Under the pieces are notes generated by a model that saw only the letters and a program-made list of their open reading frames with translations, had not been told where the DNA came from and searched no databases. 29,692 bases of DNA from NCBI GenBank assembly GCA_041490145.1, contig JBGPSO010000001.1, forward strand, positions 1-29,692, written 5' to 3'. Shown here piece after piece: positions 3,154 through 23,400 of the stretch (position 1 is the stretch's first letter; the number at the start of each line of letters is the position of its first letter). The stretch comes from Atribacterota bacterium (lineage in GTDB: Bacteria; Atribacterota; Phoenicimicrobiia; Phoenicimicrobiales; Phoenicimicrobiaceae). The translations under genes were made by a program, and so were the position numbers.

Positions 3154-3163
3154 ACTATAAATA

Positions 3164-3189
3164 GTGGAGTGAAGTGGAGTGAAGTGGAG
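3164..3189 (+). promoter_or_regulatory. MraZ operator: three GTGGAG direct repeats at 10-bp spacing
   Basis: GTGGAG at 3164, 3174 and 3184, directly upstream of mraZ; matches the known GTGG[A/T]G x3 MraZ boxes. Confidence 0.9.
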
Positions 3190-3643: not shown

Positions 3644-3646
3644 TCT

Positions 3647-4573
3647 ATGGTGAATTCTTTTCATAGCCCAGTACTAATAAAAGAAGTTATATATTATTTA
3701 AATTGTAAGAAAGGGGGTATTTATATCGATTGTACTTTAGGAGGTGGAGGACATGCTGAATCAATTTTAGAAAAAATATACCCTGATGGTTTATTGATTG
3801 GTATTGATCAGGATATAGAGGCAATCGAAGCAGCAAGTAGAAAATTAAAAAATTATCTGGATAGAGTGAAATTAGTGAAAGATAATTTTAATAATTTAGA
3901 AGAGATTTTAAATAACTTAAAAATTAAAAAAGTCAGCGGAATATTTTTTGATTTAGGAGTTTCCTCTCACCAATTAGCAGAAAAGGAACGGGGATTTAGC
4001 TTTAAAGAAGACAGTTATTTAGATATGCGGATGGATTTAACCCAAAAATTTAATGCTGATATTCTGATTAATAGTTATTCAGAAAAAGATCTTATAGAAA
4101 TATTCCAGAGATATGGAGAAGAACGATTTTCTAAAAGAATTGCCCATTTAATAGTCATAGAGAGGCAAAAGAAACCTATAACTACTACCAAACAATTAGC
4201 TGATTTGGTGATAAGGGTTCTTCCTAAAACTCAAAAAAAGAGTTGGTGGAGAATTCATCCAGCCACTCGGATTTTTCAGGCTATCAGAATAGAGGTAAAT
4301 CGAGAACTTGAGTTCTTAGAAAAGGGGCTATATCAAGCTATCAAAGTTTTAGATGATAAAGGAAGGGTAGGTGTTATTTCCTACCATTCTTTAGAGGATA
4401 GGATAGTTAAAAATATATTTAAAAAAGCGGAGAAAGAAGGAATGGGACAAAAGGAGTATAACTTAAAGATTATTACTAAAAAACCAATTAGACCTTCTTT
4501 AGAGGAAATAAAGGGAAATCCTAAAGCGAGAAGCGCTAAATTAAGAGTGGCAGAAAAGATAATATCTATATAA
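3647..4573 (+). CDS. rsmH: 16S rRNA m4C1402 methyltransferase RsmH (MraW)
   Basis: HSPVL, DCTLGGGGHA, DLGVSSHQL, HPATRIFQAIRIEVN, SYHSLEDRIVK, NPKARSAKLR. Confidence 0.97.
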   Translation: MVNSFHSPVLIKEVIYYLNCKKGGIYIDCTLGGGGHAESILEKIYPDGLLIGIDQDIEAIEAASRKLKNYLDRVKLVKDNFNNLEEILNNLKIKKVSGIFFDLGVSSHQLAEKERGFSFKEDSYLDMRMDLTQKFNADILINSYSEKDLIEIFQRYGEERFSKRIAHLIVIERQKKPITTTKQLADLVIRVLPKTQKKSWWRIHPATRIFQAIRIEVNRELEFLEKGLYQAIKVLDDKGRVGVISYHSLEDRIVKNIFKKAEKEGMGQKEYNLKIITKKPIRPSLEEIKGNPKARSAKLRVAEKIISI

Positions 4574-6861: not shown

Positions 6862-7257
6862 GTGTATAGCATCTCGTGAATTGTATCTCGTTTTCTAGCG
6901 TAGAGCGGGTAGCGTTTAATATGTAGGATAATTAGTCAGTTAGTATTTAGTGAATAGTATTTAATAATAAAACGAAAAATTAAAAGCGCAAAATGCAAAA
7001 CTATAACTAAAAATTAAAAATTGAGATAAAAAGTTTTGAGTTTTGAATTATGGTTTTTCGCTTTTAGCTTTACGCTTTTAGCTGTAAAATGATAACTTAA
7101 AATTGAAAAATTGTATTCAAAACCAACGACTTTCACTATCGACTAAATTAACTGGTAAACAGGATAACTGGGTAACTATATACTCGATACGCGATACGTA
7201 ATATACAATACGAGGTTAGATTGAAACACTATACGCAATACGATATACTATATACGA
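6862..7257. repeat. Nested palindromic element A (three bracketed arm pairs plus one orphan octamer arm)
   Basis: Outer TAT(A/C)TCG/TAGCG arms 6862-6915 and 7179-7257. Middle TAGT-heptamer arms 6931-6961 and 7120-7150. Inner A-rich/T-rich heptamer hairpin 6969-7020 / 7034-7082. Unpaired TAACTGGT octamer run 7149-7178. No ORF. Confidence 0.75.
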
Positions 7258-7285
7258 ATCAGGGAAATTAGAGGTAATTTATTCT

Positions 7286-8758
7286 ATGAAGTTAAGCGAA
7301 CTGATAACTAACTTAGAAGTTAAGGAAGTTTTTGGCGATTTAAATTTAGATATTAAAGGAATTTACTATGACTCTCGAAAAATAAAGAGAGATTTTTTAT
7401 TTATATGCATAAGAGGTTTTACTTTCGATGGGCATCATTTTATTGCTGAAGCTATTAATAAAGGTGCTATTGCTCTTGTAGTAGAAAAAGAAATTAACCT
7501 CAGACCCGGTATTACTGTAATCAAGGTAAATGATAGTCGCAAAGCTTTAGCAATTTTAGCTAATCAATTTTATGGTTTTCCTTCCAGTAAATTAAAATTA
7601 ATTGGAGTTACTGGAACAAACGGTAAAACTACAATTACCTATATGTTGAGAATTATCTTGCAGGAAGCAGGTTATAAAACCGGACTTCTTGGTACTGCTC
7701 AAAACATAATTGGTGATAATATTGTCTCTTCTCATATGACTACTATGGAATCAGTCGATCTACAAAAAGCCCTCCAAGAAATGGTAGAAAAAAAGAATAA
7801 CTATGCGGTAATGGAAGTATCTTCACATGCCTTGCAATTATCTCGAGTAGAAGGCTGTAATTTTGATATAGCTATTTTTAGTAATATTAGTAGAGAGCAT
7901 TTCGAAATCCATAAAAACTTTTCTAATTATTTAGAGGCAAAGAAAAAATTATTTTTAAGTTTAAATAAAAGTAAAAAAGAAGCTTCTAAAAAATTTGCGA
8001 TAATTAATATTGACGAAGAGTATAGTAAAAATTTTATAGATTGTAATGAAGTCAATTTAATTACCTATGGAATAAAAAATGAGAGTAATGTTAGGGCTAA
8101 AAATATAGAAATGAATATTAAAAATTCTTCATTTATAGTGGAGACACCTATAGGTGATACTAAGATAGCTCTAAATTTTAGCGGAGTATACAACATATAT
8201 AATGCTTTAGCAGCTATAGCAGCATCTATTTCTCAGGGTATTCCTTTAAATATAATTTCCCAAGCTTTAGATAAGTTTTATGGGGCTCCTGGAAGATATA
8301 AAATGATTGAATATGGTCAGAATTATACTATTATTATAGATTTTGCTCACAATTATCATGGATTAGGGAATATATTACAGAATTTACGTACTTTTACTCC
8401 CCATCATATAATTACCGTATTCGGACATGGAGGAGAAAAATATAATAAGGTAAGAGTTACCATAGGAGAAGTTATAGGAAAATATAGTGATTATGTAGTA
8501 ATAACTGCTGACAACCCTAAAAGTGAGGATCCTAAAAAAATTGCTCAGGAGATTGAAAAAGGGGTTAAAAAAACCAATAAAGAATATATTATAATTACTG
8601 ACCGGGCCGAAGCTATTAAACATGCTTTAGGTAAAGCTAAAGAAGGAGATATAGTTTTGATAGCTGGGAAAGGACCTGAAAATGAACAAATCTATAAAAA
8701 TAAAATTCTTCACTATAATGATGAAGAAGTAGTAAGGAAAATATTAATGGAGAGATAA
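7286..8758 (+). CDS. murE: UDP-MurNAc-dipeptide amino-acid ligase MurE (divergent specificity motifs)
   Basis: GVTGTNGKTT P-loop, HMTTMES, VMEVSSHAL, AGKG. Carries DFAHN, GHGGEK and DNPK where canonical MurE has DYAHT, GCGGDR and DNPR. Confidence 0.88.
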   Translation: MKLSELITNLEVKEVFGDLNLDIKGIYYDSRKIKRDFLFICIRGFTFDGHHFIAEAINKGAIALVVEKEINLRPGITVIKVNDSRKALAILANQFYGFPSSKLKLIGVTGTNGKTTITYMLRIILQEAGYKTGLLGTAQNIIGDNIVSSHMTTMESVDLQKALQEMVEKKNNYAVMEVSSHALQLSRVEGCNFDIAIFSNISREHFEIHKNFSNYLEAKKKLFLSLNKSKKEASKKFAIINIDEEYSKNFIDCNEVNLITYGIKNESNVRAKNIEMNIKNSSFIVETPIGDTKIALNFSGVYNIYNALAAIAASISQGIPLNIISQALDKFYGAPGRYKMIEYGQNYTIIIDFAHNYHGLGNILQNLRTFTPHHIITVFGHGGEKYNKVRVTIGEVIGKYSDYVVITADNPKSEDPKKIAQEIEKGVKKTNKEYIIITDRAEAIKHALGKAKEGDIVLIAGKGPENEQIYKNKILHYNDEEVVRKILMER

Positions 8759-8761
8759 AAA

Positions 8762-10198
8762 TTGGAAGGATATAAAGTTACAGAATTGATAAAAGTTACC
8801 TCAGGAAGGTTAATTCAGGGTGACCAAGATCGCTTAATAAATAGAGTTTCTATAGATAGTAGGAATCTAGCTCCAGGTGATTTATTTTTTGCTATAATTG
8901 GTTCCCGTTTTGATGGACATAATTTTATTGGAGAAGCTCTTAATAAAGGGGCGGTGGGAGTAGTAATTTGTAAAAATATTGGTAATTTGTTACAGAAAGA
9001 AGAGCTAAATAAAGATAAAATTATTATAGAAGTAAAAGATACTCTTTCTGCCCTGCAAGATTGGTCTAAGCATTATAAAAATAAATTTAAAACTTTTAAT
9101 ATCTGCATTACCGGTAGTAACGGAAAGACCACCACCAAAGAGATCATTGCTCATATATTATCTCAAAAATTCTCCCTTTTAAAAACCTCTAGTAATTATA
9201 ACAACGAAATTGGAATCCCTCTTACTTTGTTACAGCTTAATGAATTACATCAGATATTAGTGGTAGAAATGGGGATGAGAGGTTTAGGAGAAATAAAAGT
9301 TCTTACTAATCTTGTCCATCCTGATTTAGCAGTTATTACTAATATTGGAGAAGCCCATATTGGTTTATTAGGATCAAGAGATAATATTTTTAAGGCTAAA
9401 TCAGAATTGTTACAATCATTAAACCAAGATGGTATAGTAATTTTAAATAGAGATGATCCATATTTCTTAAAGATGTTGGGAATGGTTAAAGGCAAGAAAA
9501 TAATTACCTTTGGCCTTGAGAATAAAAGTGATATTATGGCTTGTAATATCAGAATGATCAGTGACAGAGGAATGAAGTTTACCCTTAAAATAAAAGATGT
9601 TGAAGATCGAGAGATATTTTTCCCTTTATTAGGAAGGTATAACATTTATAACGCACTTGCTGCTTCTGCAACTGCTTTTGCTTTGGGAGTAGAAATGGAT
9701 TTAATTGAAAAAAGCTTATCTTCTTTTCAACCATTAGAAATGCATATGTATTTAAAGAATTTTTATGATGATATTAAAATCTTAAATGATTCCTATAATG
9801 CTAGCCCATTATCAGTAAAAAAGGCTTTAGAAACTTTAGTAGAAGTGTCACAAGGAAATAGAAATATAGCTATCTTAGGAGATATGCTTGAATTAGGAGA
9901 AAAGACTAACTTTTATCATCAAGAAATAGGAAGAGAAGTAGCAAAATTATCTATAAATACACTAATTACTGTTGGTAAAGGAGGAAAGATAATTGCTAAA
10001 TCTTCTAAAGATGAGGGAATGTCGGAAAGTAAAATTTTTTCTTTTGAGAAAAGTGAGAAGAAAAAATTGGCTAAAGAACTATTAAATCTAACTAGACCAG
10101 GAGATTTTGTCTTATTAAAAGGTTCTCGAGAAATGAAGATGGAAGAGATCTTAGAATTTTGGCAAAAAGAATATCGAAAAAATAATCTCACAATGTAG
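8762..10198 (+). CDS. murF: UDP-MurNAc-tripeptide--D-Ala-D-Ala ligase MurF
   Basis: SIDSR, ITGSNGKTTTKE, NYNNEIGIPLTL, VEMGM, NDSYNASP, LGDMLELG, LKGSR. Confidence 0.95.
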   Translation: MEGYKVTELIKVTSGRLIQGDQDRLINRVSIDSRNLAPGDLFFAIIGSRFDGHNFIGEALNKGAVGVVICKNIGNLLQKEELNKDKIIIEVKDTLSALQDWSKHYKNKFKTFNICITGSNGKTTTKEIIAHILSQKFSLLKTSSNYNNEIGIPLTLLQLNELHQILVVEMGMRGLGEIKVLTNLVHPDLAVITNIGEAHIGLLGSRDNIFKAKSELLQSLNQDGIVILNRDDPYFLKMLGMVKGKKIITFGLENKSDIMACNIRMISDRGMKFTLKIKDVEDREIFFPLLGRYNIYNALAASATAFALGVEMDLIEKSLSSFQPLEMHMYLKNFYDDIKILNDSYNASPLSVKKALETLVEVSQGNRNIAILGDMLELGEKTNFYHQEIGREVAKLSINTLITVGKGGKIIAKSSKDEGMSESKIFSFEKSEKKKLAKELLNLTRPGDFVLLKGSREMKMEEILEFWQKEYRKNNLTM

Positions 10199-10207
10199 GG
10201 GGGCATA

Positions 10208-11161
10208 ATGACCAATTGGCTATGGATAATTTTAATTTCGTTTATAATTCCAGTTATTACTTTGCCATTTTTTGTAAATTATCTTAAAAAGCATAAAATA
10301 GGACAGAGAATTCGTCAGGAAGGGCCAGATCTTCATCAACATAAAATGGGAATACCCACCATGGGAGGAATAATTGTTCTTCTTACTTTGCTAATAGTAA
10401 TTATACTGCTTGTCCCTTATAATAAATATATTTTATGGTCGTTAATCATTACTGTCGGTTTTGGCCTTATCGGTTTAATTGATGATTTAATAAAATATTT
10501 TAAAAAACGTTCATTAGGCCTTAAAGCTAGCTATAAATTATTTCTTCAAATTATCTTTTCTCTAATAGTTCTATTTTTTATTTATCCAATTGGTGATTTG
10601 GGTACAGAAATTTATCTTCCTTTTTTGAAGAAAAGTCTAGATTTAGGCAGGTTGTTTACACCTTTTGTAGTCTTGGTAATGATTAGCTCGGTAAATGCTT
10701 TAAATTTAACTGATGGTTTAGATGGACTAGCTACCGGATTGATATTTATTGCTATGTTGACTTTTGCTTTAATCGCCTATATTCAAAATATTTTGCCTAT
10801 GAGTCTTTTTTCTCTAATAGTTGCCTTTACTTGCCTCGGATTTTTAGTCTATAATTTTTTCCCGGCTCAAATATTTTTAGGAGATGTAGGTGCTTTTGCT
10901 TTAGGTGGCGCACTTGCATCTATAGCAATTTTTACTAAAACAGAACTATTTTTATTGATCATTGGGGGAGTATTTGCAATTGAAACTTTATCGGTAATCT
11001 TACAGGTAACTTCTGTAAAATTAAGAAAGAAAATTCTTTTTAAGATGAGTCCGATTCATCATCATTTTGAACTTTGTGGATGGCAAGAACCAAAGATTGT
11101 GATCAGGTTTTGGATAGCCGGAGTGATTTTCGCGTTTATTGGAATAGCTAGTTTTTTTTAA
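10208..11161 (+). CDS. mraY: Phospho-MurNAc-pentapeptide transferase MraY
   Basis: Polytopic membrane protein with GIPTMGG, IDD, NLTDGLDGL, FLGDVG and PIHHHFE. Confidence 0.96.
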   Translation: MTNWLWIILISFIIPVITLPFFVNYLKKHKIGQRIRQEGPDLHQHKMGIPTMGGIIVLLTLLIVIILLVPYNKYILWSLIITVGFGLIGLIDDLIKYFKKRSLGLKASYKLFLQIIFSLIVLFFIYPIGDLGTEIYLPFLKKSLDLGRLFTPFVVLVMISSVNALNLTDGLDGLATGLIFIAMLTFALIAYIQNILPMSLFSLIVAFTCLGFLVYNFFPAQIFLGDVGAFALGGALASIAIFTKTELFLLIIGGVFAIETLSVILQVTSVKLRKKILFKMSPIHHHFELCGWQEPKIVIRFWIAGVIFAFIGIASFF

Positions 11162-11180
11162 AAAAATTGCTTGGTGATTT

Positions 11181-11300
11181 GTTAGATAGTTATTTGGTTA
11201 TTTGGTTACTTGGTTAGTTAGTTGGATAATTGGTATAAACTGTATAATTTTGAATTTAATATTAACCAACTAACCAGCTAACTAATTAACCAACTAACTA
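11181..11300. repeat. Palindromic element B (TAAC/TTGGTTA 4-8-mer arms, 30-nt loop) at the usual murD position
   Basis: G/T-rich arm 11181-11230 (TATTTGGT repeats) is complementary to A/C-rich arm 11261-11300 (TAACCAAC repeats). Confidence 0.8.
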
Positions 11301-11322
11301 CAAAATATGGAGTTATAATGAA

Positions 11323-12444
11323 ATGATAATAGAAAAGAAATCTCCTGATCTATGGGTTTTTATAACTGTAATTATTCTAACGGCTATTGGCGTATGTATG
11401 GTCTTTAGTTCAAGCTATGTTATGGGTTATAAGTGGTATGGAGATAGTTATTATTTTTTAAAGAAACAATTATTTTTTAGTATAATAGCTTTAGTAGTAT
11501 TTTTTTTCGCCATATTTACCGACTACCATCACTTTAAAAAATTTGCTTTACCTCTCTTAATTTTATCTATTATTTTGCTATCAATGTTATTTATTCCAAA
11601 CCTTGGGAAATCTGCTGGGGGAGCAAAGAGATGGATTGTGATACCATTTCTTCCTTTCCAACCTCAACCTTCTGAACTGGCTAAATTTGCTTTAATTTTA
11701 TATATGGCAGAATTTTTAACTAGGAAACAATTAAAAGATATAAAAACATTTCTTAAAGGGATATTACCCTCAATAATTATTATGTTAGTTATGTTTTTCT
11801 TGATTTTAGAAGAACCTGATTTTAGTACTTCCTTAATCATTTTAGGTATTTCCTTTATTATGTTATTTATTGGTGGAACTAAGATAATTCAACTTTATTC
11901 GTTGATAATAGCCTCAATTCCTTTCGGGATTTTTATGTTATTAAAAGAAGAATATAGAAAGATAAGATTGCTTTCTTTTTTGAATCCATGGAAAGATCCT
12001 TTAGACAGTGGGTTTCATATAATACAATCTCTATTAGCCTTAGGTAGTGGTAAAATCTTGGGAATTGGATTGGGAGCGAGTAAGCAAAAATATTTTTATC
12101 TTCCTGATCAACATACGGATTTTATCTTTTCCATTATTGGGGAAGAGTTAGGATTTATAGGTACTCTTATAATAATTATTCTGTTTATAATATTACTATG
12201 GCGTGGATTTAGGATAGCTTTGAATTCAGTTGATGAATTTGGTACTTTATTAGCTGCTGGGATTACTTCTATGATAGTTTTTCAGAGTATAATCAATGTA
12301 GGAGTAGTAACTAAGATGATCCCTACTACTGGTATTACTTTACCCTTCATAAGTTTCGGAGGCTCATCTTTAATTATGAATATGTTTTGTGCCGGAATTT
12401 TATTGAATATTTCCCGATATAAAATAAAAGAGGGTGGAGTGTAA
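11323..12444 (+). CDS. ftsW: SEDS-family peptidoglycan polymerase FtsW
   Basis: GAKRWI, QPSELAK, EPDF, GFHIIQS, LPDQHTDFIF, GITLPFISFGGSS; position before murG. Confidence 0.95.
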   Translation: MIIEKKSPDLWVFITVIILTAIGVCMVFSSSYVMGYKWYGDSYYFLKKQLFFSIIALVVFFFAIFTDYHHFKKFALPLLILSIILLSMLFIPNLGKSAGGAKRWIVIPFLPFQPQPSELAKFALILYMAEFLTRKQLKDIKTFLKGILPSIIIMLVMFFLILEEPDFSTSLIILGISFIMLFIGGTKIIQLYSLIIASIPFGIFMLLKEEYRKIRLLSFLNPWKDPLDSGFHIIQSLLALGSGKILGIGLGASKQKYFYLPDQHTDFIFSIIGEELGFIGTLIIIILFIILLWRGFRIALNSVDEFGTLLAAGITSMIVFQSIINVGVVTKMIPTTGITLPFISFGGSSLIMNMFCAGILLNISRYKIKEGGV

Positions 12445-12447
12445 TTA

Positions 12448-13566
12448 ATGTCAATAAAGGCAATCATATCTGGTGGTGGAACAGGCGGACATATATATCC
12501 TGGAATTAGCTTAGCTTATGAAATAAAAGATAGAAATGTAAATAATAAGGTTTTATTTATAGGCACGGAAAGAGGCTTAGAATCAAAACTTATACCTCGG
12601 GAAGGTTTTAAATTTGCGAAAATTTCTGCCCGAGGTATCCAACGAAAAATATGTTTTGAAAATATAGTGGCTATTTTAATTTTTTTTATATCACTATTTC
12701 AATCTTTTAAAATTATAAAAAGATATAAACCAGATTTGGTTATCGGAACCGGTGGCTATGTAAGTGGTTCGGTTGTTTTGATGGCTGCCTTACTAGGCAT
12801 TCCAACTTTTATTCATGAACAGAATGTAGTTCCTGGAGTTACCAATAAATTTTTATCTCCTCTAGCAAGGGCTACATTTTTAAGCTTTGATCAATCGCGA
12901 AAATACTTTAGCCACCAATCAAAATTAACCTTAACTGGCAACCCGATTCGATTTAAAAATTTAGAAAGAAATAAAAGCAAAGATTATAAAAAATTTAATC
13001 TTGATCCCTTGAAAAATACCATATTAGTCTTAGGAGGTAGCAAGGGAGCAGCTTCAATTAATAAAGCAGTAGTGCAAGGAATAAGTATAATAAAGGAGAT
13101 TATTAAAAATAAATGGCAAGTTTTGTTGATTAGTGGGCAAGATGATTATAGTAAAATAATCGAAATAATTGGAGAAGATAATAAAATATTTTTTGTAGAA
13201 CGCTATTTATATGATATAGAAAAAGCATATTCTTTGGCTGATCTAGTGATTTGTCGAGCAGGAGCTACGACATTAGCTGAAATTAGTGCTTATGGGATAC
13301 CTGCAATTTTAATACCTTATCCCTATGCGACTAACCATCACCAAGAAATTAATGCTCGTATTTTAGAAAGAGAGGGAGCTGCGGTAGTAATTTTAGAAGA
13401 AAATTTATCTGGAGAAAAATTAGCAAAGGTTTTAGTTGATTTAATTAAAGATGAAAATAAATTAGAGATAATGGCAAAAAAAAGTAGAGAATTAGATAAG
13501 GTCGATTCAGCTGCAAAAATCATAAATATTATTTTTAATTATATTAGAAAAAAAAATAAAAAATAA
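12448..13566 (+). CDS. murG: Undecaprenyl-PP-MurNAc-pentapeptide GlcNAc transferase MurG
   Basis: GGGTGGH, GTGGYVS, HEQN, GNPIR, LGGSKGA, RAGATTLAE, PYPYA..HQEINA. Confidence 0.97.
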   Translation: MSIKAIISGGGTGGHIYPGISLAYEIKDRNVNNKVLFIGTERGLESKLIPREGFKFAKISARGIQRKICFENIVAILIFFISLFQSFKIIKRYKPDLVIGTGGYVSGSVVLMAALLGIPTFIHEQNVVPGVTNKFLSPLARATFLSFDQSRKYFSHQSKLTLTGNPIRFKNLERNKSKDYKKFNLDPLKNTILVLGGSKGAASINKAVVQGISIIKEIIKNKWQVLLISGQDDYSKIIEIIGEDNKIFFVERYLYDIEKAYSLADLVICRAGATTLAEISAYGIPAILIPYPYATNHHQEINARILEREGAAVVILEENLSGEKLAKVLVDLIKDENKLEIMAKKSRELDKVDSAAKIINIIFNYIRKKNKK

Positions 13567-13623
13567 AAGATATTTTCCAAATAGAGCAGGAAAATTAATA
13601 ATTTTATTGAAATTACAATATAA

Positions 13624-13714
13624 GATATATAGTGTTGCGGATATAGTATATCGTTTTAAAGGTCGTCTTTTATTTTCAACTGTTCGATATACAAAACACG
13701 ATATACGATATACG
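13624..13714. repeat. Palindromic element C (CGATATA heptamer arms, about 31-nt loop)
   Basis: GTATATCG (13646-13653) pairs with CGATATAC (13685-13692). The right arm has tandem CGATATA x2 plus a third copy and ends 6 nt before the murC RBS. Confidence 0.65.
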
Positions 13715-13732
13715 GGAAGAGGAGGGATATTA

Positions 13733-15127
13733 TTGTTAATGAATAAACGAAAATTACATATACATTTTATAGGTATAGGCGGAGCAGGAATGAGTGCTTT
13801 AGCTTTAATACTTCTTGATTTAGGCTATAAAATTAGCGGTTCTGATATTAGATCTTCCAAGATAACTAATAGATTAATTGATAAAGGAGCAATTATTTTT
13901 GAGAATCATAACGAAAGTAATATAGAAGGAGCGGATCTAATAGTAGTTTCATCAGCAATTCCCGAATCTAACCCAGAAATTGAAGCTGCTTTAAAGAAAA
14001 ACATAAAAATAATTAAAAGAGCTAAGATGTTGGCAAATCTTATGGATCATAAATACGGAATAGCCATTGCCGGTACACATGGTAAAACTACTACTACTTC
14101 TATGATAAGTCTATTATTAGAAAAAAGTGGTTTAGACCCTACGGTAGTAATAGGAGGAGAATCAAACAATATTAAAAGTAATGCCAAATTGGGAAGGGGA
14201 AATTATATTGTTGTAGAAGCTGACGAAAGTGATGGCTCTTTTTTAGAATTAAATCCATATATGGCTATAGTCACCAATATAGAAGATGATCATTTAGATC
14301 ATTATAAAAATATAGAAAATGTTCTAAAAGATTTTATGAAATTCATTGATCAAGTTCCTAATGATGGACAGGTGATTTTGTGCAAGGATTGCGATAATGT
14401 GAAGAAATTAATAAAAGAATATGGAAAAAGTTATATTTCTTATGGAATATCTACAGAAGCAGATTTTATGGCTAAAAAAATAGAATTAGATAAATTAAGT
14501 TCTAGATCAGAAATATATTGGCAGGGTGAAAAAATCGGTAATCTTCATTTAAATGTTGCGGGATATCATAATATTTTAAATGCCTTAGCGGCAATTGCTG
14601 TTGCTCGAGAATTGGGAATGAATTTTAATCAAATTGCAGAAATATTAGAAAGCTTTCAGGGAGTACAAAGAAGAATGGAAATAGTTGCCAATATCGATGG
14701 TAAAATATTAATTATGGATGATTATGCTCACCATCCTACCGAAATCAAAGCAACCTTAAGTGCTTTAAGGAATAGCTGGGAAAATAGAAGAATAATTGTC
14801 GTATTTCAGCCTCATAGGTATACCAGAACTAAACTTCTGGCAGAAAAGTTCGGTAAGGTATTTTTTGATGCTGATCAGGTAGTTATCACTGATATTTATT
14901 CAGCCAACGAACCACCAATATCTGGAATTAGTGGAGAAACCATATTTAAGGAGATTAAAAAAGCCAATCATAGTTATGTAAAATATATACCCTCCAAAGA
15001 TAATATTTTAAGTTTTTTATACGAAATTGTTCAACCTGGAGATGTAATAATAACTATGGGAGCGGGAGATATTTGGACTGTTGGTCAGGAATTGGCTAAA
15101 CAATTAAAGAGAACGAAGGTGTCTTAA
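13733..15127 (+). CDS. murC: UDP-N-acetylmuramate--L-alanine ligase MurC
   Basis: HFIGIGGAGMS, GTHGKTTTT, EADESDGSF, DDYAHHPTEI, FQPHRYTR. Start moved from 13607 to the in-frame TTG at 13733 (7 nt after GGAGG); ATG 13739 is the alternative. Confidence 0.95.
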   Translation: MLMNKRKLHIHFIGIGGAGMSALALILLDLGYKISGSDIRSSKITNRLIDKGAIIFENHNESNIEGADLIVVSSAIPESNPEIEAALKKNIKIIKRAKMLANLMDHKYGIAIAGTHGKTTTTSMISLLLEKSGLDPTVVIGGESNNIKSNAKLGRGNYIVVEADESDGSFLELNPYMAIVTNIEDDHLDHYKNIENVLKDFMKFIDQVPNDGQVILCKDCDNVKKLIKEYGKSYISYGISTEADFMAKKIELDKLSSRSEIYWQGEKIGNLHLNVAGYHNILNALAAIAVARELGMNFNQIAEILESFQGVQRRMEIVANIDGKILIMDDYAHHPTEIKATLSALRNSWENRRIIVVFQPHRYTRTKLLAEKFGKVFFDADQVVITDIYSANEPPISGISGETIFKEIKKANHSYVKYIPSKDNILSFLYEIVQPGDVIITMGAGDIWTVGQELAKQLKRTKVS

Positions 15128-15132
15128 TTTAT

Positions 15133-16053
15133 TTGAGAATGAATCTAGAGATTATAAGTAATGAATTAAAAAAAAGAGAAATTAATAAGATAGTTAAATT
15201 TAATGAACCATTAAAGAAGCATACTTCATTGAGAATCGGTGGACCTGTTGACATTTTTTGTACCCCTAATACTATCGAAGAATTAAAAAAAGTTATTTCT
15301 ATTTCCAAAGAATATGATATTCCTTTTTGGGTAATTGGGAACGGAACCAATATATTAATTTTAGATCAAGGGGTAAGAGGGATAGTAATTAAATTAAACC
15401 AAGGTTTTAAAAAAATAATATTTTTTGATAAAATTGTAAAAGTAGGAGCGGGAGTATCTTTAATATATTTAGGTAAAATAGCTTTAAAGAAAGAATTAAG
15501 TGGATTGGAATTTGTCTGTAATATCCCCGGAACTTTAGGTGGAGCAATAATTAATAACGCTAGTTTTAATGGAAATTGCATGGCAAATATAGTGCAAGAT
15601 GTTACTTTTTTAACTGAAGAAAATAATCTAGAGAGCGCATCTAAATCTGATTTAGATTTTAATTATCGGAAATGTAATTTAAAAGGTAGGTCAGCTATAA
15701 TTTTAGAAGCAACCTTACAATTAAAAGAGGGGAATAAAGAAAAAATAGAATCTAAAATAAGAAAAAATAATAAAATCAGGAAAGCTAAACAGCCTATCGA
15801 TAAATTGAGTGCAGGTAGTATATTTAAAAATCCACCAGGTTATTATGCTGCTGAATTAATAGAAAAGGTTGGAGCAAAGGGACTCTCTCAAGGTAAAGCT
15901 GAAGTTTCTTGTAAGCACGCTAATTTCATTATAAATAACGGGAATGCTACCGCAAGGGATGTTTTATATTTAATTGAAGAAATAGAGAAAAGAGTAAAAG
16001 AAGCTTTTAATATTGAATTAAATCGGGAAATACAGATTTTAGGTGAACCGTAA
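15133..16053 (+). CDS. murB: UDP-N-acetylenolpyruvoylglucosamine reductase MurB
   Basis: HTSLRIGG, GNGTNIL, IPGTLGGA, SAGSIFKNP, KHANFIIN. Confidence 0.95.
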   Translation: MRMNLEIISNELKKREINKIVKFNEPLKKHTSLRIGGPVDIFCTPNTIEELKKVISISKEYDIPFWVIGNGTNILILDQGVRGIVIKLNQGFKKIIFFDKIVKVGAGVSLIYLGKIALKKELSGLEFVCNIPGTLGGAIINNASFNGNCMANIVQDVTFLTEENNLESASKSDLDFNYRKCNLKGRSAIILEATLQLKEGNKEKIESKIRKNNKIRKAKQPIDKLSAGSIFKNPPGYYAAELIEKVGAKGLSQGKAEVSCKHANFIINNGNATARDVLYLIEEIEKRVKEAFNIELNREIQILGEP

Positions 16054-16054
16054 A

Positions 16055-16275
16055 AGAAGACAGAAGACAGAAGTCAGAATAATATCGTATCGAGTGTATA
16101 GTATATAGCGAAGAAAGAGGAAGAAAGCGGATATTGAGAAATAGTTAGCTGGTTACCTGGTTAGTTAGTTGAAGATTTAGTATCAAACTAGCTAACTAAT
16201 TAGCCAACTAACTAACTAACCAGCGAACCAAATTGATAAATGATTTATCCTATACGCTAGCCGCTATACGCTATT
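16055..16275. repeat. Nested palindromic element D (CAGAAGA arm, TATAG/TAGCG outer pair, TAAC inner hairpin)
   Basis: CAGAAGA heptamers at 16055-16081 have no local partner. Outer arms are about 16086-16135 and 16249-16275. Inner arms are 16141-16171 and 16185-16230 (GTTAGTTAGTTG/CAACTAACTAAC, 12 bp perfect). Confidence 0.78.
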
Positions 16276-16296
16276 AAAGGGGATTCGGTTATATAA

Positions 16297-17076
16297 GTGA
16301 TAATGAAAATGTTTGCTGAAAGAGAAGAAGACAAAAAACCTCAACCTCTGGGAATAAAAATAAGTAAAATATTGATTTTTTATTTAATAATAGGTTTTCT
16401 AGGCTGGAATTTTTTTAATTTTATGTTTAACTCGAAATTTTGTAATATTGAAGAAGTTATAATTAAAGGAAATAGTTATCTTAGCGAAAATGAAATATTT
16501 GCTAAGTCTCAGATAAAATTAGGTAAAAATATCTTTAAGTTAGATTTAAATAAAGTTATAAACTCTTTAAAGGAAGAACCCTGGATAAGAGAATTAGAAG
16601 TAAAGAGGGTAATACCTAATAAAATAATCATTTCTTTAGAAGAAAGAAAAGCAGCAGCAATTGTATATATCGGAGAAGAATATTTTAGTTCGAGCAAAGA
16701 AGGAATAGTTTTATCTAAAATTGATAAAACCAAGAGAGAATTTAATCTACCTTTAATATTAGGATTAAAAATTACTGAAATAAAAATAGGTAAAAAAATA
16801 GATGAAACTGAGTTTAGGACAGCATTAGAAATTATTAATTCAGCAGAAGTGATATTACCTAAGAAATTTTGTATAATAAAAATATTAGCTCCAGACGATT
16901 TTATGATTTGCAATGAAGATGATACATTGAAAGTTAGAGTAAATAAACCAGAGGAGATTATTAATAAAGAAAAATTATTAAGAGAAGCTTTAGAAAAGAT
17001 TGAAAATGAGAAGTTATTAGTAGAATATATAGATATGAGTTTTAAAGATAGTTTAATAATAAAAGTAAAGAAATAG
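16297..17076 (+). CDS. ftsQ: Cell division protein FtsQ/DivIB
   Basis: TM segment, then POTRA-like region (IEEVIIKGN, GKNIF, PWIRELEVKRVIPNKIII.LEER) and C-terminal YIDM; sits before ftsA. Exact start (16297/16303/16309) is uncertain. Confidence 0.9.
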   Translation: MIMKMFAEREEDKKPQPLGIKISKILIFYLIIGFLGWNFFNFMFNSKFCNIEEVIIKGNSYLSENEIFAKSQIKLGKNIFKLDLNKVINSLKEEPWIRELEVKRVIPNKIIISLEERKAAAIVYIGEEYFSSSKEGIVLSKIDKTKREFNLPLILGLKITEIKIGKKIDETEFRTALEIINSAEVILPKKFCIIKILAPDDFMICNEDDTLKVRVNKPEEIINKEKLLREALEKIENEKLLVEYIDMSFKDSLIIKVKK

Positions 17077-17160
17077 TATTTGTTAAACAAAAGATATCAG
17101 TTATTTACTTTAATTAATCAGTAGTGTATGATATTTAAAAGCAGGCAGGAGGTTATAGAT

Positions 17161-18399
17161 ATGGAAAGAGATGAAATGGTAGTTGGTTTAGATATAGGTA
17201 CTGGAAAAGTATGTACGGTTATAGGTGAATTAGGTGAAGATAACCAAATAGAAATTATTGGCATAGGCACCTCCCCCTCATTAGGAGTAAAAAAGGGAGT
17301 AATTATAGATTTAGATCAAGCTATTCAATCTGTAAAACAATCTATCGAAAGTTCTGAACGTATGGCCGGAACTCGAATTGATTCTGTTTTTGTTTCTATT
17401 GCGGGAAGTCATATAACATCTGTAAATAGTAAAGGGGTTATTGCCATTTCTGAAGCATCTCCAGAAATTACTGAAAGGGATATTGAAAAGGTTATAGAAG
17501 CTGCTAAAGCGGGAATAGTTTCTCCGGAAAAAGAATTAATTCACATTTTAAGTCGCGAATTTGTGGTAGATGGCCAAAGTGGAATAGTGGATCCACTAGG
17601 AATGTCTGGTACACGATTAGAGTGTAAAGTCCATATTATAACTGGTTCGAGTACAGCGGTACAAAATTTGATTAAATGTGTAGAAGGAGCAGGAGTAAAT
17701 ATTGAGGAAATTATTTTTGGAACTTTAGCTTCTAGTAATGCGGTTTTAAGCAGTACTGAGAAAGAGTTGGGAGTTTTATTAATTGATATTGGTGCTGGAA
17801 CTACTGAAATAGCGATTTTTGTTAAAGGTGGATTAGCTTATTCTGCAGTTTTGCCAGTAGGGGGTATTCAGATTACTAATGATTTAGCTATCGGTTTAAG
17901 AACTTCTGTAGAAGAAGCTGAGAAGATAAAAATTAATTATGGAACTGCTATTGAAAATAGTATTTCTCCTGAAAAATTAGTAGAAATTTCCAGTATTAAT
18001 GAAAAAGATAAACAAAATATATCTAAAAAATACCTGGTAGAAATTATTGAACCTCGAGTCAGTGAGATATTTAGTTTAGTAGGGGCTGAAGTTAGAAAAT
18101 CTGGGTATTATGATATGATTCCCGGAGGAGTAGTTATAACTGGAGGTAGTTCTTTACTGCCTGGTATTTCAGAAGTTGCTGAAAAGGTCCTAAATTTACC
18201 TTCTCGATTAGGAAGGCCCCATTACCAAGGGGAGTTAGCAGATATGATAAATGACCCCTCCTATTCTGCAGCAGTTGGATTATTAAGTTATGCTACTGAG
18301 AGATATTCTATCGGGAGGTCTTTTAAATTATCTAGAAAAAAAACAGGATTAAAAAATATTTTTGGAAAAATTTATAGTTGGTTGAGAGATTTTTTTTAG
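17161..18399 (+). CDS. ftsA: Cell division protein FtsA
   Basis: VGLDIGTGK, GVKKGVI, LIDIGAGTT, GVVITGGSS. Start set at ATG 17161, after GGAGG at 17148-17152. Confidence 0.96.
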   Translation: MERDEMVVGLDIGTGKVCTVIGELGEDNQIEIIGIGTSPSLGVKKGVIIDLDQAIQSVKQSIESSERMAGTRIDSVFVSIAGSHITSVNSKGVIAISEASPEITERDIEKVIEAAKAGIVSPEKELIHILSREFVVDGQSGIVDPLGMSGTRLECKVHIITGSSTAVQNLIKCVEGAGVNIEEIIFGTLASSNAVLSSTEKELGVLLIDIGAGTTEIAIFVKGGLAYSAVLPVGGIQITNDLAIGLRTSVEEAEKIKINYGTAIENSISPEKLVEISSINEKDKQNISKKYLVEIIEPRVSEIFSLVGAEVRKSGYYDMIPGGVVITGGSSLLPGISEVAEKVLNLPSRLGRPHYQGELADMINDPSYSAAVGLLSYATERYSIGRSFKLSRKKTGLKNIFGKIYSWLRDFF

Positions 18400-18457
18400 T
18401 TGTTTTCATTATTTTAAGATAAGTTATTATTTTGTTATTTTGTAAGGAGGTTATAAA

Positions 18458-19516
18458 TTGTCTAACCTTAATAATAAAGTAGGACAGTTTGTGGAGATAA
18501 AAGTTATTGGTGTGGGTGGCGGCGGTGGTAATGCGGTTAATAGAATGATTGAAGCGAAATTACAGGGAGTTGAATATATTTCCGCTAATACTGATGCCCA
18601 AGTATTGGCCTTTTCTAATGCAGAACAGAAAATACAAATTGGTAGTAGTATAACTAAGGGATTAGGTAGTGGAGGAAACCCAGAAATTGGTCGTCAAGCT
18701 GCAGAAGAAGATAAAGATAAAATTTTAAACGCCTTAGAAGGAGCAGAAATGGTATTTATCACCGCAGGTATGGGAGGTGGAACTGGAACTGGTGGAGCCC
18801 CAATTATCGCTAAATTATCTAAAACTTTAGGTGCATTAACCGTTGGAGTAGTGACTAAACCTTTTTCTTTTGAAGGCCACATAAGAATGAAACAGGCTGA
18901 AGAAGGGATCAAATTATTAAAAGAATGTGTGGATACTTTAATTGTAATTCCTAATGATAGGTTACTTCAAGTAGTTGATAAAAATACTTCTATCTTAGAG
19001 GCTTTTAAAATTGCCGATGAAGTTCTATTACAAGGGATTCAGGGAATTACAGATATTGTAGTTGAGCCCGGTTTAATAAATGTAGACTTTGCTGATGTAA
19101 AAATGATTATAGCCAATGCTGGTACAGCTATAATGGGAATGGGAAGAGCTAGTGGTGAAAACCGAGCTATAAAAGCAGCAGAGAGAGCTATAAATAGTCC
19201 AATTTTGGAGACAAATATCCAAGGAGCTAAAGGGATATTATTTAACATTAGTGGAAGTTCAAATTTAACTTTATATGAAGTTAATGAAGCTGCTGAAATA
19301 ATTTCTAAAGCGGCTAATCCTGAAGCAAATATAATTTTTGGAGCAGTAATTAATAAAGAATTGAATGATGAAGTGAAGATTACGGTAATTGCTGCCGGAT
19401 TCGATGCCTTAGAGAAAAGAAAAGAAGAATATAAATTTGAAGAGATTGATTTTAATAAAGAGAAGATAAGTTATAACGATTTAGAGATCCCTACCTTTTT
19501 AAGAGAGAAAAAGTAA
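18458..19516 (+). CDS. ftsZ: Cell division protein FtsZ
   Basis: [17 protein letters not shown] tubulin signature, NVDFADV, C-terminal LEIPTFLR tail. TTG start after GGAGG. Confidence 0.98.
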
Positions 19517-19518
19517 AA

Positions 19519-19773
19519 AATAGCGTATAGCAGGTAGCGCTAAGCGTATGATAAGAAAACGAAAAACGACCTGTCTGCGTGCCTGCCTGAGCGAGTACGC
19601 TCGCAGTCAGGCAACGCACAGGCAGAAAAGCTAAAAACCATAATTCAAAATTCAAAATTTTTCTCTTTGTTTTAAGTTTTAAGTTATGGCTTTGCGCTTT
19701 ATACTTTTCATTTTTCACTAATACAATATACGCTATCCGCTAATAATATTCTGTCTTCTGACTTCTGTCTTCT
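19519..19773. repeat. Nested palindromic element E (TAGCG outer pair, A-rich/T-rich inner hairpin, TCTTCTG arm)
   Basis: TAGCGTA arms at 19519-19550 and 19721-19745. Inner arms at 19556-19657 (interrupted) and 19670-19715. TCTTCTG heptamers at 19747-19773 have no local partner. Confidence 0.78.
19570..19625. repeat. GC-rich REP-like hairpin inserted in element E
   Basis: CCTGT/ACAGG, TGCGT/ACGCA, TGCCTGA/TCAGGCA and GCGAG-TACG-CTCGC stems; strikingly GC-rich for this window. Confidence 0.7.
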
Positions 19774-19853
19774 ATTTAAAGGCTACCAGATAAATCCCTT
19801 ATTTAGGCATTGAAATTTTTATTTATATTTTTAAAATATATAGCGATTTCTTC

Positions 19854-20408: not shown

Positions 20409-23400
20409 ATGACGAATACCGTTAGAAAAAGAGAAGGTCAGTTAGTAGAATTTGATCGGAAAAAGATAGTTGAAGCTATTTTTGCTGCTATGCAAGTAAT
20501 GGGAGAAGAGAATAAATTCAGATCAGAAAAAATAACTGATCAAGTAATTAAAAAACTAGAAGAAAGATTTAAGGATAAGATTCCTCAGGTGGAAGAAGTT
20601 CAAGATATAGTAGAAGAAACATTGATTAAGGAAGGAATGGTAAAAGTCGCCAAAGCTTATATATTGTATCGAGATAAGAGAAGTAGAATTCGAGAAAGTT
20701 TAAAAGTTAGAAAAAAAATAAAAAATCATAAGAGTATGACCGATCTTTCCTTGTTGGTTTCTACTCCAGCTTCTGAGAATATCTTTCCCTGGGATAGAAA
20801 AAAAATTGTCCATGCTTTAGTTAAAGAAGCAGAACTGCCTTTGAATATTTCTAGGAAGATAGCTAAAGCAGTGGAAGAAAAGATATTCGATTTAGGATTA
20901 ATTGAGATAACTACTTCTTTAATTAGAGAATTGGTTGATAATGAATTATTTGCGAGAGGATACGAGCATAAGTGGAGAAAGCAAAAGATTATCGGAATAC
21001 CTACTTTTGATTTGAAACAATTATTCTTATCTAAGAGTAAAGAGAATAGTAATATTGGAACCAACAATCCAGAGGCGATAAACTTGACTATTGCTGAAAA
21101 TACTATTAAACAATATATGCTACAAGAAATTTTTTCCAAAGAAGTAGCTAATGCCCATTTAAAAGGTTGGATTCACATTCATGATTTAGGCTACCCTCGA
21201 ATTTATTGTTCAGGTCATTCCCTCGAATATTTAAAAAAATATGGTTTGAAATTAGAAAATTTAGATACTTCTTCTGCACCAGCTAAGCATACTAGAACTT
21301 TAACCGGTCATTTAAACACCTTTTTGGCTTCTATGCAAGCCTATTATGCTGGTGCTTTAGGTATTGGTTATTTAAACATCATTTACGCTCCTTTCTTAGT
21401 GAATTTACCTTTTAAAGAAATAAAGCAAGAAGCCCAATACTTAATATTTAGCGGTTCACAAAATGCTTTTTCAAGGGGTGGGCAATCGCTTAGAGGGAAA
21501 GAAAAAATATATGTTTACGATACTCAAGAAAAAGAATTAAAATCAATTCCCATTGAACGATTTTATCATAATTTCAATAAAGATAAAGATAGAGACAGGT
21601 ACTTTACAATAAGTATAGATCGGCTAACAGGAAAACCAGTATTAGGGAAAATATATCAAGCAATTAGACACCAAAGAAAAAATAAACTTGTAGAAATAAA
21701 AACAGGTTTAGGAGGAAAAATATGTGTTACCGATGACCATTCTTTATTTACGCTTAATAAAAATGGAGAAATTATTGAAATAAAGCCAAGCCAGAATCCA
21801 GAAAATATTTTATCTTTATCCTCCTTTCCAATTTATGATAATAAAAAAAATGTTGATGTTACCGATTATCTGTCAGAAGATTTATATGTAAAAATAAACG
21901 ATGAATATATCGATTTAAGATGTAATTCTCATTATCATAACAAATTAAAAATACATATTCCCCTAACTAAAGAGTTTGCTACTTTATTAGGATATTATGT
22001 AGCCGAAGGTAATTGTACCCCAACTTCTGTATTTATTTCTTGCCGGGATGACAAGGAAAAAGAAAATATTGCTCATTTAGTAAAAACAATTTTTGTAGAT
22101 GAAACCACAGTTACTATTTTACAGAAAGGGGTAAGATTTTCTGGTAGTTTATATAGTTCTTTGTTTAAGAAATTGTGCGGGAATGGAGCAATTAATAAAA
22201 AAATTCCTGATTTTATTCTTTTTGGAAAGGATGAAATTATAAAAGCGTTTCTTGCCGGATATCTTTCCGGTGATGGATATATAGAAAATAAAAATAAAAT
22301 TGGATGTAGTACAATTTCAGAAACATTAAAATCTCATCTCTGGTTAGTTTTTACTAAGATTGGATGCTTACCAACAATAAAGGATAAAGACCGGAGCAAA
22401 GAAAAAATTATTATTAAGGGTAATGAAGTAAAGAAAACCCATTTACAATATGTACTTACGATTGGGATAAACTCTTTTGATAAAGTTTATTTTTCTTTAG
22501 AAAGAAAAGAAGAAGAAAGAAAAAAATGTTTAGAAAGGTTTAAAAATAAACCTTCTTATAAACAATATGACCAGCGTAGATACGATTATAACCAATTGAA
22601 ACCTCTGATTAAAAAAATCTTTGGAGCTAAAATTTCTTTAAAATCTTATCCTCTTTCTGTGCAATGGATTGATAAAATAAAAAGAAGGGTAAATAATAGT
22701 CTAATCGGTTTGCCAAATCCTTCTGTGGAGGAAGTTGGTAAAGAAGAAATTCCTTTATTATTTAAAAAACTTTTTATTTTTGATAATGTTCAACCCCATA
22801 GTGATTTGAACTCTTCATCAATGTATTTTGATATGAGAAACATTAACTCTTTTCCTCAGCAAATTTTAGCAAAAAATATTATTAAGAAACAGATAAAAAG
22901 GCTTAAAAATCTAAAAAGTATATTATATAAAGCAAGTGATTTATTACCTGTAGAAGTAATTAATCAGAAAGAAATAAAAGAGCAAGATAGATATGTATAT
23001 GATATTTCTGTAGAAAAATACGAAAACTTTCTAACTACCGATGGTCTCCTTGCTCATAATAGCCTTTTTCTTGATTTTAATGTTCATCTAGGTATCCCTG
23101 AGTACCTTAAAAATGTGCCTGCAATTGGACCTGGAGGAGAATATACCGGGAAAAATTACGGAGAATACGAAATAGAATCTCAATTATTTTTAAAAGCTCT
23201 AATGGAAGTTTGGGAAGAAGGAGATTGTAATAAAAAAGTCTTTGCTTTTCCTAAAATGGATTTACATATTAATAATAGATCTTTCGAAGATCCTGAACAG
23301 AAAAAATTATTAGAATATGCGTGTGAAGTAGCCTCTGAAAATGGTTCGCCCTATTTTATTTTTGATCGAGATGATATAAGTTTAGCCTCCTGTTGCCGAT

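Follow-up and report, generated by a model that had tools for sequence, protein, structure and literature searches.

Decayed, gene-less copies of an S23p-type selfish cassette probably fill five junctions of an Atribacterota dcw operon

What fills the five long junctions of the division and cell wall (dcw) operon in an Atribacterota bacterium of the family Phoenicimicrobiaceae? The window, by which we mean the whole stretch of 29,692 nucleotides (nt) analyzed here (GenBank assembly GCA_041490145.1, contig JBGPSO010000001.1, positions 1 to 29,692), is contig C1 of a 1.76-Mb metagenome-assembled genome (MAG; 291 contigs, 97.6% complete, ~30% G+C) whose nearest named relatives are Atribacterota, including Candidatus Sediminicultor. 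Pfam assignments give the gene order as ftsI, murE, a second Mur ligase (murF-like), mraY, ftsW, murG, murC, murB, ftsQ and ftsA, with ftsZ and nrdR downstream of ftsA named from the gene names of a first-pass annotation of this DNA and its table of open reading frames (ORFs). Five junctions are long: A (ftsI|murE, 6862-7285, 424 nt), B (mraY|ftsW, 11162-11322, 161 nt), C (murG|murC, 13567-13738, 172 nt), D (murB|ftsQ, 16054-16296, 243 nt) and E (ftsZ|nrdR, 19517-19853, 337 nt). The remaining dcw junctions in the window comprise five of 3-9 nt and four of 49-112 nt, such that the first-pass statement that most other junctions measure 1-10 nt holds for the former group and not for the latter. 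Each of the five long junctions possesses arrays of period 7, 8 or 4 (Tandem Repeats Finder, TRF), which, together with arms placed by exact string search, bears out their description as filled by tandem 7-mers or 4/8-mers, and no ORF for a protein of the PF05635 family was found within any of them. We conclude, with a probability of roughly 0.7, that the five fillers descend from one selfish cassette family, abundant in this family of Atribacterota, as decayed copies that lack their gene and are partly stacked; the identity of the element we regard, with good confidence, as settled.

The gene-carrying forms of this cassette are found elsewhere in the same genome. Profile matches revealed four PF05635 genes (78-140 bits vs a curated cut-off of 33.8), PF05635 being the same as TIGR02436, the S23p four-helix-bundle family of 23S ribosomal RNA (rRNA) intervening sequences. 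All of them sit between inverted arms of the types present in the dcw junctions: TAAC on contig C149, TAGCGTA on C166, A-rich on C20 and GTATCGA on C178. Across the bacterial family, 27 of 30 genomes possess a PF05635 gene, and the 54 loci that we read share one layout, in which a left array of 3-6 tandem 7-nt (or 4/8-nt) units begins at the upstream stop codon or within a few bases of it; then come a purine-rich leader that includes a ribosome-binding site, a gene of ~120 codons, a pyrimidine-rich trailer, and inverted units that stop shortly before the next ribosome-binding site. The first-pass annotation had noted that such arms flank four-helix-bundle (TIGR02436-like) genes in other anaerobes, and this link is now confirmed by the 4/4 genes here, by ~50 in the family and by a filled TAGCGTA cassette that occupies the mraY|ftsW junction itself in one relative (L007). 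Some fresh-looking copies have arms that mirror each other exactly; at locus L044, the 30-nt left arm recurs in full, odd unit included, as the reverse complement on the right. A TAGT-clade cargo protein of a relative (L012) matches PDB 2GSC, a Xanthomonas protein, at E = 4e-28, and 2GSC is a pentamer of four-helix bundles (PMC4990558). Among cassettes between co-directional host genes, 28 lie in sense and 1 in antisense orientation, and we saw no promoter belonging to the cassette, a scan for promoter-like sites giving no excess and only the nrdR promoter being conspicuous; because of this 28:1 orientation and the lack of promoter-like excess, the cassette gene appears to rely on read-through from the host operon, or else antisense copies appear to get lost. 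At three loci (L013, L017 and L033, frames judged by eye) the upstream host stop codon is apparently the first TAG of a TAGT-type arm, so that the element seems to supply the stop codon of its upstream gene.

The junction fillers retain parts of the filled form beyond the arms. Hairpin D2 of junction D and the mraY|ftsW hairpin of a relative (L001) keep the first leader bases of the TAAC cassette (gaagattt), and within junction A the TAGT layer likewise retains the stretch that comes after this arm in filled cassettes, because of which we interpret the fillers as cassettes minus their gene. Layering is clearest in junction A, where four left arms stand in a row and the right halves follow in roughly reverse order, and it also surrounds intact genes, with a CGTATCT cassette within TAGCGTA arms at two loci (L045 and L058). 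Arm types recur between junctions: TAGCGTA/TATACGC arms in A, D and E; GTATCGA/CGATATA arms in A, C and D; TAAC arms in A (right arm only), B and D; A-rich GCNAAAA/TCAAAAC arms in A and E; and CAGAAGA arms in D (left) and E (right). These observations (Table 1) agree with much of what the first-pass annotation had described, namely five arm types that recur (all were found), right arms that end just before the next ribosome-binding site (seen at murE and ftsQ), and small non-autonomous elements that insert into one another, as the elements form a genome-wide family sharing arms with gene-carrying cassettes and layers of differing type are nested. Its picture of arms that close like parentheses stands for the inverted, partly nested arms, and some brackets are left open: neither the TAACTGG arm of junction A (7150-7177) nor the purine leader of junction D (16111-16130) is paired, and the array at 16055-16079 has its partner 3.7 kb away at 19749-19773.

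Table 1. Arms, hairpins and other features of the five junctions, with one gene-carrying cassette gene from elsewhere in the genome (window positions unless a contig is given).
Feature	Position	Strand
Junction A, outermost left arm, CGTATCT type; core tctcgtgaatTgtatctcg differs from the family-wide 19-mer at one position	6862-6890	+
Junction A, left arm, TAGCGTA type	6895-6914	+
Junction A, left arm, TAGT type, tagtgaatagtattt; same in filled cassettes L012 and L017_1	6932-6962	+
Junction A, innermost A-rich hairpin; arms 6969-7022 and 7031-7082; arm type shared with the four-helix gene of contig C20	6969-7082	+
Junction A, right arm, TAGT type, aacgactttcactatcgacta	7125-7149	+
Junction A, right arm, TAACTGG type, without clear left partner	7150-7177	+
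Junction A, right arms, GTATCGA/CGATACG and TATACGC types; end ~10 nt 5' of the murE ribosome-binding site	7178-7258	+
Junction B, single TAAC-type hairpin; arms 11179-11225 and 11262-11300; arm type as at the four-helix gene of contig C149	11179-11300	+
Junction C, non-repeat segment, 58 nt; outside the element	13567-13624	+
Junction C, weak hairpin, GTATATC/CGATATA type; arms 13625-13653 and 13685-13714	13625-13714	+
Junction D, AGAAGAC array directly after the murB stop codon; 23/25 complementary to 19749-19773	16055-16079	+
Junction D, GTATCGA/TAGCG left arm (16084-16110), then purine-rich cassette leader (16111-16130)	16084-16130	+
Junction D, inner TAAC-type hairpin (D2); loop begins with cassette-leader bases gaagattt	16141-16231	+
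Junction D, right arm, TATACGC type; ends right before the ftsQ ribosome-binding site	16249-16273	+
Junction E, left arm, TAGCGTA type	19520-19550	+
Junction E, A-rich hairpin; left arm 19553-19569 and 19626-19659, right arm 19666-19718	19553-19718	+
Junction E, GC-rich palindrome of another kind, splitting the A-rich left arm; no GTAG head	19570-19625	+
Junction E, right arm, TATACGC type	19726-19744	+
Junction E, TTCTGTC array; inverted match of 16055-16079 across ftsQ-ftsA-ftsZ	19749-19773	+
TAAC-type four-helix-bundle gene	C149:2671-2982	

Two segments within these junctions are of a different nature. The non-repeat segment of junction C is conserved in three relatives (L001, L005 and L009) while the adjoining repeat DNA is not, and it could serve murC-murB as an internal promoter or as a regulatory site. 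The GC-rich palindrome of junction E has 30 nt missing in one strain and is multi-copy, since its word depth is ~35x that of its flanks. We also considered whether the CAGAAGA-type arms on either side of ftsQ, ftsA and ftsZ form a single 3.7-kb bracketed element; the match is real as sequence, and we rejected the single element because an arm will pair with every possible partner of its own type, because plain CAGAAGA hairpins with a 17-nt loop occur elsewhere in the same samples, and because the pair is missing from relatives.

Beyond the operon, the arrays are a genome-wide and predominantly intergenic feature. Counting over the whole genome gave 387 non-coding vs 95 coding period-7 arrays and 54 vs 4 of period 4, with non-coding DNA making up ~18% of bases by a crude ORF map. 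Eight unit types account for 431 of the 490 non-coding arrays (TAAC being the largest, with 131 arrays), and 172 of the 490 have an inverted partner within 800 nt vs 49 with a direct partner, 31 scoring equally at a random place; both the intergenic enrichment and the partnering of arms that the first-pass annotation had implied are therefore seen in these counts. Below a score of 24, a blastn self-search with +1/-1 scoring did not distinguish genuine inverted arms from a mirror-sequence control, and it was set aside. Word depth over junctions A and E is 6-14x that of their flanks, and gene-less arms outnumber gene-carrying arms by more than 10:1. Replication slippage within AT-rich spacers could in principle build such arrays locally, without any copying between loci, and gains and losses of whole units between strains are what it would produce, but we consider this origin very improbable given that partners are inverted rather than direct (172 vs 49), that the same types stand round one gene family, and that non-repetitive unit orders, leaders and trailers are common to loci and genomes (e.g., cgtatctcgtatctcgtgaatcgtatctcg followed by taaaggaaa), with the shared non-repetitive cores contradicting it.

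The clearest of these cores belongs to the CGTATCT arm, a non-repetitive 19-mer (TCTCGTGAATCGTATCTCG) that has 16 copies in this genome within two mismatches, one of them in junction A, despite the lack of any CGTATCT-clade gene here. It was found in 28 of the 30 family genomes at 0-94 copies, often mismatch-free, with a reversed control giving ~0. Genomes with a typed CGTATCT-clade gene possess 21-94 copies vs 0-23 in those without (having other types or no PF05635 gene), a contrast that is a hint only, because all carriers of the CGTATCT gene sit in one genus (g6).

Arms and gene also travel together. Arm types were assigned by eye at first and then by fixed patterns, and the protein tree was built without the C-terminal tail, which can run into the right arm. 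Mapping 10 arm types onto 47 proteins required 10 changes on the tree vs 30-38 (mean 34) with shuffled labels, and kindred clades possess kindred units, such that CGTATCG, GTATATC, GTATCGA and CGTATCT cluster and the two 4/8-mer types are sisters. The way in which arm types track the protein tree shows that arms plus gene make up one unit. This unit is not tied to place: the TAGT clade occupies at least four different loci, and the junction after an lptB-like gene holds a TAAC cassette here and in G020 and a TAGT cassette in G011 and G006, pairs that cut across genera. A second cargo family has its own arms as well. The first-pass annotation had named GxxExxY genes (PF13366) as a further cargo, and though none exists in this genome, they occur in 4 of 30 relatives, the two intact ones with arm units of their own (CGAATTA and CACAGAT).

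These patterns raise the possibility, which would add to rather than replace the reading as decayed cassettes, that the units are binding sites of the cassette's own four-helix-bundle protein, marking or mobilizing the cassette and its gene-less copies; the arms would then be inverted arrays of putative recognition sites and not a palindrome kept for pairing, an arrangement for which the subterminal repeats of some transposons, likened to site arrays, offer a parallel. We hold this as a tentative minority view. It would account for the one-to-one match of arm unit and protein clade with related clades having related units, for complementarity at the level of type and not of the single hairpin (see below), for the freely varying number of units, for the exact 19-mer conserved across genera, for a GxxExxY cargo with units of its own, and for the higher core counts alongside a CGTATCT-clade gene. 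Weighing on the other side, linked DNA is inherited together, so that the tree by itself is no proof of recognition; the copy-number contrast is confounded by genus; and G012 keeps at least 12 exact cores without a PF05635 gene.

The first-pass annotation had a second half, in which the arrays fold out of the polycistronic messenger RNA (mRNA) as long stems, possibly ribonuclease III (RNase III)-cut, that segment the operon. If the operon is transcribed through the elements, its mRNA would possess long, imperfect, A/U-rich stems, and by analogy with the homologous stems of 23S intervening sequences RNase III could cut them. Taken further, the stems would be functional parts of the dcw mRNA, intercistronic processing or stabilizing hairpins that divide the operon into segments of differing stability, much as sites between phage T7 genes are processed by RNase III. 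Several observations are in keeping with such a role: three junctions give folds of 41-82 kcal/mol, an RNase III gene is present in the genome, right arms end just before the next ribosome-binding site, cassettes face host transcription 28:1, and all relatives share the same set of hot-spot junctions, while the homologous stem of the Coxiella intervening sequence is cut by RNase III (PMC4990558). Folded whole against dinucleotide shuffles, junction B (-41.3 kcal/mol, z = -4.85), junction D (z = -3.9) and junction E (z = -4.0) stand out, and A (z = -1.5) and C (z = -0.5) fold no better than the shuffles. Genome-wide, an advantage of 10 kcal/mol or more over mononucleotide shuffles is seen for ~150 of the 541 spacers that separate co-directional genes.

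Evaluating these spacers for selection at the RNA level, however, gave null results throughout. With spacers oriented by their host genes, the fold excess over shuffles of equal composition was -6.3 kcal/mol for the sense vs -6.8 kcal/mol for the antisense strand. With stems predicted from Watson-Crick pairing alone, the single mismatches of the G·U type on the sense strand numbered 76 vs 68 of the A·C type, which is G·U only on the antisense strand (p = 0.56). Across 40 TAAC hairpins, own arms paired at -0.81 and arms of different hairpins at -0.88 kcal/mol per nt, showing no advantage of the own partner, nor was one found in three other arm types; in 36 filled cassettes the cognate minus non-cognate difference was -1.4 kcal/mol (p = 0.28), while pairing across types is distinctly poorer than within a type. 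Because the own partner has no advantage over a foreign arm of like type, complementarity is a property of the unit type and not of the single hairpin. The RNA half of the first-pass annotation thus gained no support, with neither a G·U bias, nor a sense-strand advantage, nor an own-partner advantage, and both compensatory and G·U-biased changes, on which that annotation had itself staked the RNA reading, failed to appear. By these statistics the sequence gives the RNA-processing reading no support and shows no sign of selection for stem cutting, and we regard a functional role of the stems in the dcw mRNA as unlikely, the more so with junction content replaced between relatives. The stems may nonetheless form and be cut, as tandem units pair in many registers whatever their order. 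Covariance models of Rfam at gathering score gave no match in the junctions (the window matches being an RNase P RNA and one tRNA only), and no intrinsic terminator (a G+C-rich stem plus a T-run) was present at any of the five.

Comparing relatives revealed that the sites are stable while their content turns over. The same five dcw junctions span 48-1953 nt in eight relatives, vs 3-17 nt for the short junctions and 42-58 nt for the ftsL|ftsI, ftsQ|ftsA and ftsA|ftsZ spacers, such that the accepting junctions lie outside both the translationally coupled set (3-17 nt) and the conserved spacers (~42-58 nt). The exception is L009 only, where ~180 extra nt with a reversed CGTATCT arm stand in the conserved 51-nt ftsQ|ftsA spacer. 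A TAGCGTA arm follows the ftsZ stop codon in 7 of the 7 relatives read there, and from this ubiquity and the shared hot spots we infer that some arms are old. For 17 junctions that are filled in relatives, the counterpart here is another filled type in 4, gene-less hairpins or mixtures in 9, a lone arm or single residual unit in 2, and doubtful in 2. Turnover is also seen between strains, since contigs that are 95-99% identical from other sediment samples show gains or losses of entire units (a 16-nt loss at 11194, ACGATAT gained at 13697, CGTATAA gained at 19530), and in a metatranscriptome contig ~98% identical in murB and ftsQ (the RNA data being assembled contigs) 235 unrelated letters replace 16054-16261. 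Junction content is therefore not invariant among relatives, in line with the first-pass notion of mobile insertions. Sediment runs X1-X17 contain this strain, at a fraction of 0.7-0.99 of sampled words. An exact-protein look-up with MurG for near-identical strains found none.

An assembly artefact, with repeats misjoined in the MAG contig, might be suspected from the fact that, in other runs, contigs assembled from short reads stop at junctions A, B, D and E. Independent contigs nonetheless run from flanking genes into the arms (X15 over 14349-16079 and 11127-13850; X19 over 18477-19640), and eight relatives from other studies possess the same layout at the same junctions, leaving this explanation scarcely credible.

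We interpret the locus, then, as one where copies of a selfish cassette have accumulated. The elements would spread or be replaced at the DNA level, piling up where the host tolerates them; later arrivals would land within earlier ones, and loss of the gene would then leave bracket-like layers. A number of observations weigh against this interpretation. No insertion mechanism or transposase was found, no target-site duplication stood out at the boundaries inspected by eye, and the cargo protein does not belong to any known kind of transposase. All relatives share the five junctions as hot spots, with the TAGCGTA arm after ftsZ in every relative read, and some old arms may have been co-opted by the host. 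Transcription through the elements is seen in two RNA-library contigs, which possibly contain DNA. The link of arm and clade could be plain co-inheritance of linked DNA, and G012, which has no PF05635 gene at all, possesses 23 core copies within two mismatches. Finally, exact 19-mers across genera suggest a constraint that 'junk' leaves unexplained.

The closest described system is the ORF-bearing intervening sequence (IVS) of 23S rRNA. In Coxiella burnetii, the IVS in helix 45 possesses a stem of 28-bp terminal inverted repeats with an S23p ORF in its loop, is excised by RNase III, and has AGAAGA and then two or three tandem GACAGAT heptamers, variable between strains, 5' of the ORF; ORF-bearing 23S IVSs are known from Leptospira too, and such IVSs are regarded as selfish, their ORF tending to decay (PMC4990558). 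Our cassettes share the cargo family (S23p/PF05635), the gene in a stem loop, the purine-rich leader, the variable heptamers and the long-stem terminal inverted repeats, the last of these being only weakly expressed in junction A, when folded whole, and in junction C. They differ in lying in mRNA-operon and rRNA spacers and not in the 23S helix, in that the five window copies are ORF-less, in the many arm types per genome, and in being stacked; and RNase III excision, which has been shown for Coxiella, is putative for the cassettes here. The 23S gene of this genome (C7:254-3284) gave no PF05635 match. As separate observations, this gene is ~100 nt longer than the Rfam model, and the spacers on either side of the 23S-5S rRNA genes (C7:1-260 and 3285-3700 of this genome; locus L040) possess arrays of TAGCGTA, TAAC and CCAATT type together with one G+C-rich hairpin.

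Miniature inverted-repeat transposable elements (MITEs) offer a second comparison. Here, too, short non-coding copies with inverted arms are intergenic, share their ends with gene-carrying relatives (hairpins B and D2 with the C149 cassette; the layers of junction A with CGTATCT, TAGT and A-rich cassettes), are far more numerous than these, and persist after the autonomous partner is lost. The gene-carrying partner, however, encodes a 120-amino-acid four-helix bundle and no recognizable transposase, the ends are tandem arrays and not unique terminal repeats, and no target-site duplication was seen at them. With many gene-less copies left, the cassettes thus resemble MITEs without a transposase.

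A third comparison is with repetitive extragenic palindromic (REP) sequences, palindromes that flank a Y1 transposase gene (REP-associated tyrosine transposase, RAYT), and with bacterial interspersed mosaic elements (BIMEs). REPs measure 20-40 nt, are rich in G+C and mostly have GTAG or CGTC as their head (PMC3733652). REPs and BIMEs are likewise intergenic palindromes within operons, often clustered and nested, and thought to affect mRNA stability (PMC3733652), but the arms here are A+T-rich tandem units and are absent at the four Y1_Tnp loci inspected. Intergenic tandem heptamers of comparable kind exist in cyanobacteria as short tandemly repeated repetitive (STRR) sequences. In Beggiatoaceae, TAACTGA heptamers are intergenic direct repeats, with one inverted case, and have a proposed regulatory role, the paper making no mention of intervening sequences or four-helix proteins (PMC4679880). 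Both groups resemble our arrays as abundant tandem heptamers confined to intergenic DNA that often end right before start codons, and differ in that the arrays here are inverted pairs tied to a cargo gene. Searching the literature, we found no paper on such elements in Atribacterota and none on S23p genes between heptamer arrays outside rRNA, an absence from the searched literature that is not proof. What is new here are the nested gene-less forms in an essential operon, the arm-protein match, the orientation count and the negative RNA tests.

These findings may bring two matters under one explanation, namely the function of S23p/Avd-like proteins outside diversity-generating retroelements and the origin of intergenic tandem heptamers. 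With ten co-existing cassette types, hundreds of gene-less relics and hot spots in an essential operon, this family of genomes is a rich test bed, and the negative RNA tests shift the question from what the stems do in the mRNA to what recognizes the units. The arrays also explain why assemblies break at operon spacers in metagenomes of these bacteria. An account that strings all the parts together, in which the units are recognition sites of the cassette's own protein and the whole is a self-propagating, transposase-free element of an undescribed kind that mobilizes gene-less copies, with RNase III cutting the stems and segmenting the dcw mRNA, strikes us as distinctly unlikely.

Other elements are found in and around the arms. 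No reverse transcriptase was found in the genome, for which reason the Avd-like proteins here are not part of a diversity-generating retroelement. In one relative (L004) the mraY|ftsW junction possesses a 1.95-kb insert (6929-8881) with two paralogous DUF1670 genes with helix-turn-helix motifs. A 16-nt inverted repeat (catatgcccccaggtc / gacctgggggcatatg) marks the ends of this insert, heptamer arms enclose it, and it looks like a separate small transposon-like element. A second, G+C-rich class of palindromes is nested as a separate class in the arms of relatives (junctions of L004, L009 and L001), many with a GTAGGGG...CCCCTAC head like that of REP elements. Transposases of the Y1 family (IS200/RAYT type) have eight matches in this genome, one of which (C46:6747-7112) is flanked by similar short G+C-rich hairpins; as mobilizers of the heptamer cassettes we rejected them, with no heptamer arms beside the four of these eight loci that were inspected.

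A few further observations concern the neighborhood of the operon. Neither in the window (10208-12444) nor in eight relatives (L001-L009) is murD located between mraY and ftsW, a statement on this locus only, and the variable mraY|ftsW junction sits at the usual place of murD. Directly 5' of the dcw cluster are a class A bacterial RNase P RNA (303.7 bits) at 2519-2903 and a tRNA at 1492-1564. Just 5' of mraZ, at 3163-3189, stand three tandem 10-nt units (AGTGGAGTGA), which we take to resemble the repeated MraZ operator boxes of other bacteria. The nrdD gene (20409-24410) has 1333 codons, with an unbroken alignment to L002 and L003 over the last 480 residues only, a pattern that fits the intein suggested in another early annotation of this DNA.

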